IMG/VR virus record: IMGVR_UViG_2548876940_000010
Coordinates: 1-4,204 of that record
Direction: 5' to 3' (one strand)
DNA from: a virus
Lineage: Duplodnaviria; Heunggongvirae; Uroviricota; Caudoviricetes
DNA length: 4,204 bases
Both the position numbers and the translations under genes were made by a program. This document shows, one piece after another, positions 348 through 822 of this stretch; within the stretch, counting starts at the first letter, position 1; each line of letters begins with the position of its first letter. The notes below the pieces were generated by a model. It saw only the letters and a list, made by a program, of their open reading frames with translations, searched no databases and was not told the DNA's origin.

Positions 348-377
348 ATTGTAAACCAGAATGCCAGGAAAAAACAA
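348..377 (-). promoter_or_regulatory. Candidate sigma70 promoter for the 18..296 ORF (TTGTTT -35, 18-nt spacer, TACAAT -10)
   Basis: On the minus strand, TTGTTT (complement of 372-377) and TACAAT (complement of 348-353) are separated by 18 nt. The -35 lies within the U-tract of the hok terminator. Sequence-pattern match only. Confidence 0.3.
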
Positions 378-395
378 AACCCGCCGAAGCGGGTT
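368..395 (-). terminator. Rho-independent terminator ending the hok transcript
   Basis: On the minus strand: perfect 7-bp stem AACCCGC/GCGGGUU (378-384 pairs with 389-395), UUCG tetraloop (385-388), immediately followed by UUGUUUUUUCC (377 down to 367). Lies about 70 nt downstream of the hok stop codon. Confidence 0.7.
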
Positions 396-399
396 AAGT

Positions 400-414
400 G
401 CGGGTGCGTTGAGG
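400..414 (-). promoter_or_regulatory. fbi-like 3' element of hok mRNA, complementary to the 5' end (tac) of the same transcript
   Basis: The minus-strand RNA here reads CCUCAACGCACCCGC, which pairs with the predicted 5' end GCGGGUGCUUGAGG (790..777) as 14 bp with one bulged base. This matches the fold-back-inhibition arrangement described for plasmid R1 hok mRNA. Confidence 0.5.
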
Positions 415-463
415 ATGCCTGATTCATCAGAGGTGGCGAGGGATTTCTCCCTCGCCGGGTCTC

Positions 464-619
464 TTACTCCTCAGGTTCGTAAGCTGTGAAGACAGCGACC
501 TCCGTCTGGCCGGTTCGGATTCGTACCTCGCAGAGGTCTTTCCTCGTTACCAGTGCCGTCACTATGACGGTTAAACAGATGACGATCAGGGCGATTAACA
601 TCGCCTTTTGCTGCTTCAT
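464..619 (-). CDS. hok: Hok/Gef-family type I toxin (51 aa, small membrane-depolarising peptide), HokD/RelF-like
   Basis: ATG at 617-619 (minus) preceded by SD AAGGAG at about 9 nt; stop TAA at 464-466. Product MKQQKAMLIALIVICLTVIVTALVTRKDLCEVRIRTGQTEVAVFTAYEPEE aligns nearly residue-for-residue with E. coli HokC/Gef and HokD as recalled from memory. It has the expected N-terminal transmembrane helix and the conserved TRKDLCEV...GQTEVAVF...YE core. Confidence 0.9.
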   Translation of the reverse strand: MKQQKAMLIALIVICLTVIVTALVTRKDLCEVRIRTGQTEVAVFTAYEPEE

Positions 620-676
620 AGCCTGCTTCTCCTTGCCTTTCGGCGCGTAAGAGGCTAACCTACATATGTCTAGCAT
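464..676 (-). CDS. mok: Mok-like reading frame (70 aa), an in-frame N-terminal extension of hok used for translational coupling
   Basis: ATG at 674-676 (minus) with GAGG about 7 nt upstream. The N-terminal MLDICRLASYAPKGKEKQA parallels the MokC extension MLNTCRVPLTDRKVKEKRA recalled from E. coli K-12. Same frame and stop as hok. Confidence 0.6.
   Translation of the reverse strand: MLDICRLASYAPKGKEKQAMKQQKAMLIALIVICLTVIVTALVTRKDLCEVRIRTGQTEVAVFTAYEPEE
633..661 (+). promoter_or_regulatory. Predicted Sok antisense RNA promoter (TTGCCT -35, 17-nt spacer, TAACCT -10)
   Basis: Plus-strand hexamers at 633-638 and 656-661 with a 17-nt spacer, located inside the mok N-terminal coding region. Position and sequence align with the R1 sok promoter (TTGCGC, 17 nt, TATCCT) as recalled from memory. 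The -10 is weak by consensus. Confidence 0.4.
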
Positions 677-740
677 GAAATTGGCCTCAGATTAATGTTA
701 GGCGTCTTGCAGGACGCGTAATGTTAACTGGGGCTTTTCT
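668..740 (+). ncRNA. sok: Predicted Sok-like antisense RNA; ends approximate
   Basis: Plus-strand segment downstream of the predicted promoter, antisense to the mok start codon (674-676) and mok SD (about 685-688) on the hok mRNA. Contains a 5-bp stem-loop (702-706 pairs with 713-717) and a U-rich stretch CUUUUCUCU (about 734-742). No canonical GC-stem plus U-tract terminator is evident, so the 3' end is uncertain. Confidence 0.4.
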
Positions 741-794
741 CTGTCTGCCTTACGGTGGCATGCCCGAGGCAGACAGCCTCAAGCACCCGCAGCA

Positions 795-822
795 ATTCTA
801 CTTAACTCTCGCTTTACCGCAA
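795..822 (-). promoter_or_regulatory. Predicted hok/mok promoter (TTGCGG -35, 16-nt spacer, TAGAAT -10), TSS near 788-790
   Basis: Minus-strand TTGCGG (complement of 817-822) and TAGAAT (complement of 795-800). The predicted transcript start GCGGGUGCUUGAGGCUGUCUGCCUC closely resembles the R1 hok mRNA 5' end GGCGCUUGAGGCUUUCUGCCUC (from memory), including the tac hairpin GAGGC-UGUCU-GCCUC. Transcript length to the terminator is about 420 nt, comparable to the roughly 400-nt R1 hok mRNA. Confidence 0.5.

Follow-up and report, generated by a model that had tools for sequence, protein, structure and literature searches.

An exact octamer repeat lies in the two arms of a predicted wobble-rich hairpin of a probable Sok antitoxin RNA gene in an Escherichia coli lambdoid prophage

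Positions 633-742 of a 4,204-nt stretch of viral DNA (hereafter the window) raise two questions: whether they encode a Sok antisense RNA, and what the exact 8-mer repeat that they contain does in such an RNA. The initial annotation, made from the letters alone, had proposed a plus-strand Sok transcript in which the repeat flanks a small stem-loop. We conclude, with a probability of about 0.9, that this segment is the Sok antisense antitoxin RNA gene of a complete hokD/hokW-type hok/mok/sok type I toxin-antitoxin locus in an E. coli lambdoid prophage. The system is already known and this copy is an ordinary member of its family; what our analysis adds is a small structural clarification. Table 1 lists the features of the locus.

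Table 1. Coordinates in the window of the hok/mok/sok features, with the basis of each assignment
Feature	Position	Strand	Basis or remark
Sok promoter, -35 hexamer TTGCCT	633..638	+	Sequence; aligned with R1-type TTGCGC; identical in 933W sokW
Sok promoter, -10 hexamer TAACCT	656..661	+	Sequence, 17 nt past the -35; aligned with R1-type TATCCT
Predicted Sok RNA, ~71 nt	668..738	+	Both ends by homology to 933W sokW (PMC8621323: 71 nt)
Sok single-stranded 5' tail, presumed recognition element	668..682	+	Antisense to the mok AUG and SD-AUG spacer
Predicted Sok terminator hairpin, 23 bp	683..735	+	Fold; covariation; RNAalifold
Hairpin base	683-690/728-735	+	GGCCUCAG paired with CUGGGGCU; CCUCAG/CUGGGG
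Hairpin middle	692-700/719-727	+	UUAAUGUUA (692-700) paired with UAAUGUUAA (719-727); holds both TAATGTTA copies
Hairpin apical stem	702-707/712-717	+	GCGUCU/GGACGC, loop UGCA
U-rich tract UUUCUCU, predicted Sok 3'-end site	736..742	+	GGGGCTTT conserved in homologues; annotated sokW 3' end = 738
hok toxin gene, 51 aa, HokD/HokW type	464..619	-	Pfam HOK_GEF; RefSeq HokD at equivalent gene
mok frame, 70 codons, ATG 674-676	464..676	-	ORF list; in frame with hok
mok SD GAGG	685..688	-	Sequence; under the base of the Sok hairpin
Full-length hok mRNA	374..788	-	tac GGGUGCUUGAGG (777-788) pairs with fbi (402-414); terminator called by the scan at 378-395
Putative hok promoter TTGCGG (817-822), 16-nt spacer, TAGAAT (795-800)	795..822	-	Inference from sequence; 6 nt upstream of 788

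The window is a stretch of lambdoid prophage with all genes on the minus strand, in the order replication initiator, DnaC/IstB-like ATPase, DUF1627, DUF977, DUF551, two tiny ORFs, hok and one more ORF. The same gene order is found in E. coli O103:H2 12009 (NC_013353.1), which around 1,280,300-1,280,700 is 100% identical to the window over positions 600-800 and where RefSeq annotates the 51-aa product as type I toxin HokD; the RefSeq annotation of this identical locus holds no sok feature. Of 5426 complete E. coli genomes, 4720 carry related sequence; the copy number per genome has a median of 2 and reaches 10 at most. A literature search on the name 'sokD' returned nothing specific.

The two tiny ORFs between hok and the DUF551 gene (865-1020, 51 aa, and 1005-1088, 27 aa, both on the minus strand) are hydrophobic, and the first had no match in the Pfam scan; RefSeq gives one short hypothetical protein at this region of O103:H2 12009. 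A plus-strand ORF at 721-876 (51 aa) was taken as spurious, since it has no Pfam match and is antisense to the hok leader (tac stem). Near-identical hok loci (L007, L013, L041) also occur on contigs labelled Veillonella parvula MAG (L007), Xanthomonas pisi and Acinetobacter idrijaensis. L013 and L041 are very short contigs, and L007 lies on a 22.9-kb scaffold. These labels most likely reflect contamination or mis-binned E. coli phage DNA.

On the toxin side, the hok product matches Pfam PF01848 (HOK_GEF) with 82.9 bits against a cut-off of 22, and the hok leader (614-788, minus strand) scores 114 bits with Rfam RF01794, whose gathering score is 59. In the MFE fold of the 415-nt hok mRNA, nucleotides 1-12 pair with the complement of 402-414, that is, tac with fbi (z = -7.7). 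The mok SD has the same sequence as that of plasmid R1 (PMC9841398). The reading frames are arranged differently: in R1, mok and hok lie in different frames with starts 58 nt apart (PMC9841398), whereas in the window 57 nt separate the mok AUG (674-676) from the hok AUG (617-619), and the two share a frame. Judged from this arrangement, initiation at the mok AUG would yield a 70-aa, N-terminally extended Hok rather than a separate overlapping peptide. Most tblastn matches span residues 1-69 in a single frame. Rfam matches to isrK, ceN48, speF and CsrC, all under their gathering scores, were rejected. The isrK match (374-455, minus strand; 27.7 bits against 50, E = 0.0035) coincides with the 3' stem-loops and terminator of the hok mRNA, and most likely reflects a generic stem-loop-plus-terminator shape.

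The closest characterized relative that we found is hokW-sokW of phage 933W and Sakai prophage Sp5 (GenBank AF125520), with about 92% DNA identity to the locus in the window. In 933W, mokW is likewise in frame with hokW, and sokW is annotated as a 71-nt misc_RNA at 827-897 of our 933W sequence (L002), which corresponds without gaps to positions 668-738 of the window. The hexamers of the sokW promoter and their spacing are identical to those of the window, and sokW shares the long hairpin, both copies of TAATGTTA and the U tract. The hairpins differ in G683A (G·U to A-U), in G701A at the internal mismatch and in one base of the loop. Both loci reside in lambdoid prophages; that of the window lies between the replication genes and the DUF968/RusA/antiterminator block, that of 933W near the right end.

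The function of sokW has been studied directly. It is a 71-nt RNA complementary to the 5' UTR of hokW (PMC8621323); HokW is toxic, and expression of sokW from its native promoter is protective (Takada et al. 2021, PMC8621323). Supplied in trans, sokW partly restores protection; northern blots detect the RNA, which is lost on mitomycin C treatment (PMC8621323). RNase III and Hfq are partly required for its activity (PMC8621323), and the partial Hfq dependence is a difference from R1 Sok. The antitoxin tests proposed by the initial annotation have thus been done on a 92%-identical relative of the window's allele (PMC8621323). By analogy, Sok of the window would be expressed, unstable and able to neutralise Hok in trans, properties shown for the 92%-identical sokW only.

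A more distant relative is Sok of plasmid R1, and HokW and R1 Hok share only 44% identity. R1 Sok is a 64-nt RNA with an 11-nt 5' tail and a stable stem-loop (PMC1635323). For the comparison with R1, the hok leader query was confirmed to be 100% identical to real IncF plasmids. The order of elements is the same in R1 Sok and in Sok of the window: a 5' tail, one long stem-loop whose base reads CCUC.../...GGGG, and a U-rich tail. An alignment with R1 Sok, suggested at the outset as a check, bears out the proposed relationship: the TTGCGC/TATCCT promoter and the CCUC...GGGGCU.U tract of R1 coincide with their counterparts in the window. Compared with R1, Sok of the window is longer (about 71 nt), has a tail of about 15 nt and carries a GC-rich extension of the apical stem. 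This clade-specific extension might explain the reported dependence of SokW on Hfq and RNase III.

The promoter described in the initial annotation is present at 633-661, with the hexamers and the 17-nt spacing given there, and its alignment with the R1 sok promoter (TTGCGC-17-TATCCT, at the homologous position) was also correct. In the alignments with R1 and 933W, the antisense promoter occupies the same place inside mok. The -35 hexamer overlaps the hok SD on the opposite strand (AAGGAG, 629-634) and is kept in 94 of the 118 viral-contig loci that share the Sok hairpin; the A at position 2 and the T at position 6 of the -10 hexamer are invariant in 49 of 49 homologues. Taken alone, the hexamers are not significant. 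They match the consensus at 7 of 12 positions, a consensus promoter scan did not call them, and the window contains 44 promoter-like sites of equal or better quality. We did not take the silence of the promoter and terminator scans as evidence of absence, given a promoter with only 7 of 12 matches and a terminator helix with a bulge and an internal mismatch. In the identical sokW promoter, mutation of the -10 region abolished antitoxin activity (PMC8621323).

By homology, the Sok RNA is predicted to start about 7 nt past TAACCT, near G668. The plus-strand RNA was rightly described as antisense to the mok SD (685-688) and start codon (674-676), in agreement with the sokW annotation and the identical hexamers; R1 Sok is likewise antisense to the mok SD and AUG. 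Positions 668-738 cover both elements and stop short of the hok SD. Fold and covariation give the RNA a simple architecture, with a single-stranded 5' tail, one stable stem-loop and a U tail.

It is in the structure of the stem-loop that our results depart from the initial annotation. The 8-mer TAATGTTA does occur twice, at exactly 693-700 and 719-726, the small stem-loop GCGUC(U)/(G)GACGC with loop UGCA is found at 702-717, and the U-rich run CTTTTCTCT is present at 734-742. The repeat does not, however, flank a lone 5-bp stem. The two copies are base-paired to each other over all 8 positions, and the helix extends on both sides of them, so that repeat and small stem are parts of one 23-bp hairpin (683-735). 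Their appearance as a direct repeat comes from the fact that UAAUGUUA, read as RNA, can pair with itself by way of U·G and G·U wobbles. The base of the hairpin consists of five G-C pairs (684-686/732-734, 688/730 and 690/728), one A-U pair (689/729) and two G·U wobbles (683/735 and 687/731), U735 being counted as part of the stem. The fold of 668-745 (plus strand) has an energy of -34.3 kcal/mol (z = -5.9), and none of 200 shuffles was as stable.

This hairpin also bears on the claim that no canonical terminator follows the stem, which had weighed the apical stem alone. The long hairpin is followed directly by UUUUCUCU, which has 6 U in 8 nt, and the two together form a predicted intrinsic (Rho-independent) terminator. 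A bulge and an internal mismatch in the helix kept a simple terminator scan from calling it. Taken alone, the 8-mer repeat is not significant: 4% of shuffled versions of 633-742 contain an exact 8-mer direct repeat within 60 nt, and the window holds 19 such pairs. The feature above chance is the whole 683-735 hairpin, which had gone unnoticed.

To assess the conservation of the hairpin we used 49 distinct homologues from Escherichia, Shigella, Kluyvera, Citrobacter, Photorhabdus, Pantoea and Erwinia. Over this set the helix of the window retains standard pairs in 94% of cells, and 8 pairs are changed on both sides. None of 500 shuffles reached the observed pairing and covariation, and sliding the partner by 1-3 columns lowered the pairing to 34-53%. 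RNAalifold, run with no input structure and with R1-type Sok included, recovered a 13-bp basal stem with 5 compensatory pairs. The long hairpin is present in 20 of the 49 homologues; the remainder, like R1, have a shorter one. On this distribution, the GC-rich apical part is a clade-specific extension. The apical stem-loop GGCGUCUUGCAGGACGCG (701-718, plus strand) is lacking in the Rfam consensus, in R1 and in 29 of the 49 homologues, and the long-hairpin clade comprises E. coli and Shigella prophages, Kluyvera and IncY plasmids.

A rival explanation of the repeat is that the TAATGTTA pair is a true duplication scar, left when a palindromic segment GGCGTCTTGCAGGACGCG was inserted or duplicated in an ancestral short Sok hairpin, and that the pairing is incidental. 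The window does have 16-20 extra apical nucleotides relative to the Rfam consensus and to short-hairpin homologues (PPompW, Photorhabdus, hokC-like copies), and the two copies bracket exactly this extra segment. We nevertheless consider this origin unlikely. Besides the full pairing of the copies and its continuation on both sides, and the frequency of comparable repeats in shuffles, the most divergent long-hairpin members (L065, L036, L052) have a repeat identity of 5/8 and still pair at 6-7 of 8 positions, with compensatory changes (A-U to G-C, and a G·G mismatch to A-U); the stem is therefore favoured over the repeat. The empty site CCTCAGATTAATGTTAACTGGGG has 0 matches in the viral_contigs set, against more than 120 contigs with the full hairpin. 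Insertion with target-site duplication was rejected on the same grounds, as pairing outlasts repeat identity and no empty site was found in viral_contigs. Whatever the history of duplication, selection now acts on the pairing.

The bases of the promoter and hairpin also belong to the mok coding sequence and to the hok mRNA leader, and part of their conservation could stem from the other strand. A second rival explanation holds that the region is conserved solely as the minus-strand hok leader and that it makes no functional plus-strand RNA, sok being decayed or silent. In its favour, the sole Rfam match is to the minus strand, the promoter, judged by consensus, is weak and was not called by the scan, RefSeq shows no sok feature, and several K-12 chromosomal hok loci are reportedly inactive (bioRxiv 10.1101/2025.08.07.668861). 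The two strands, however, differ markedly in the helix that they can form. G·U or U·G pairs make up 20% of the paired cells in the Sok sense, and one U·G pair is kept unchanged in all 49 homologues. In the hok mRNA the wobbles of Sok are replaced by C·A mismatches, and the helix, strong in Sok, is consequently weak there: the pairing of hairpin cells is 94% in the Sok sense and 75% in the hok sense. In the window the hairpin segment folds with -30.8 kcal/mol on the Sok strand and -17.8 on the hok strand, a difference of 13 kcal/mol, and in every one of the 49 homologues the Sok strand gives the stabler fold, the mean difference being 8.4 kcal/mol. A U tract follows the hairpin on the plus strand only, and the sokW promoter, which is active in experiments, has the same hexamers. 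The hok elements are all intact, and a silent sok would therefore be expected to be lethal. The strand asymmetry argues that the structure of the plus-strand RNA is itself under selection and that conservation goes beyond the hok leader alone. We regard a region conserved for the minus strand only as highly improbable.

The strand of the Rfam match says nothing about Sok. RF01794 is named 'sok antitoxin (CssrC)' and matches the same DNA (614-788 of the window, minus strand, 114 bits), but its model is written in the sense of the hok mRNA, from the tac 5' end to the hok AUG, over 157 positions. In 933W it matches 773-947 on the minus strand (L002), opposite to the sokW of GenBank, and in an R1-type plasmid it matches 300-476 on the plus strand (L066), the same strand as the hok coding sequence. 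What RF01794 describes is therefore the hok leader rather than the 71-nt Sok RNA, and because it was built in the hok-sense orientation the strand of a match is uninformative on Sok.

Within the Sok antitoxin RNA that we thus favour, the initial annotation had placed the repeats in the likely target region of Sok. They do lie inside the complementarity, but recognition in R1 runs through the 5' tail (PMC1635323): the single-stranded tail of Sok meets a loop in the refolded hok mRNA. By this analogy, the recognition element of the window's Sok is likely the 5' tail at 668-682 and not the repeats. In the MFE fold, 668-672 and 681-682 are unpaired, and a few pairs link 673-680 with 736-744, which extends past the homology-assigned 3' end at 738. 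The first bases of Sok are complementary to the 7-nt loop CUAGACA of the target hairpin predicted in the fold of the hok leader.

The tail is also the least conserved segment of the locus, with a mean pairwise identity of 0.65 compared with 0.85-0.89 for promoter and hairpin. In 118 viral-contig loci whose 52-nt hairpin is identical, the 15-nt tail takes 13 different forms, of which that of the window is the second commonest (30 of 118). One genome, S. flexneri CP182556.1, carries three different Sok tails (L005, L009, L012). The most variable tail bases are those complementary to the target loop. This variation looks like diversified specificity between co-resident copies, and the diversity of Sok tails may already be recognised in the field. 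Even sokW differs from the window at 5 of the 15 tail positions (GUCUAGCAUGAAAUU against GUUCAGCAUGGAUUG), and cross-recognition between the two is therefore uncertain. A further reading, which we put forward tentatively and with considerable doubt, is that Soks of the long-hairpin prophage hokD/hokW clade would be modular, with a constant promoter and strand-asymmetric wobble terminator joined to a hypervariable specificity tail.

The structure of the hairpin, its conservation and covariation, its strand asymmetry and the homology to sokW and R1 Sok are observations made here; for the window's own allele we infer the exact ends, the expression and the tail-loop recognition. With these elements the following course of events may be proposed. 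Transcription from TTGCCT-17-TAACCT would begin near G668 and produce a Sok RNA with a single-stranded 5' tail of about 15 nt (668-682). The 23-bp hairpin, with the two TAATGTTA copies as the 5' and 3' arms of its middle part, and UUUUCUCU would bring about termination and stabilisation of Sok near 738. The helix would be strong in Sok and weak in the hok mRNA, so that the hok mRNA would have to refold. By analogy with R1 (mechanism summarized in PMC9841398), the tail would contact the loop of the target hairpin in the processed hok mRNA, and the duplex would spread across the mok SD and AUG. Translation of mok, and hence the coupled translation of hok, would be blocked, and RNase III would cleave the duplex between Sok and hok mRNA.

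The relevance of these results is mostly one of annotation hygiene. This is a textbook hok/sok locus; for its near-identical relative sokW, annotation dates from 1999 and validation from 2021. RefSeq leaves Sok unannotated at such loci. RF01794 can mislead automated annotation, since a 'sok' placed by it would have the wrong strand and more than twice the proper length. The wobble helix of Sok also shows how the two strands of a single DNA segment can specify hairpins of different stability, one strong and the other weak. If the modular reading were true, up to about 10 hok/sok copies could reside together in one E. coli genome without cross-talk.
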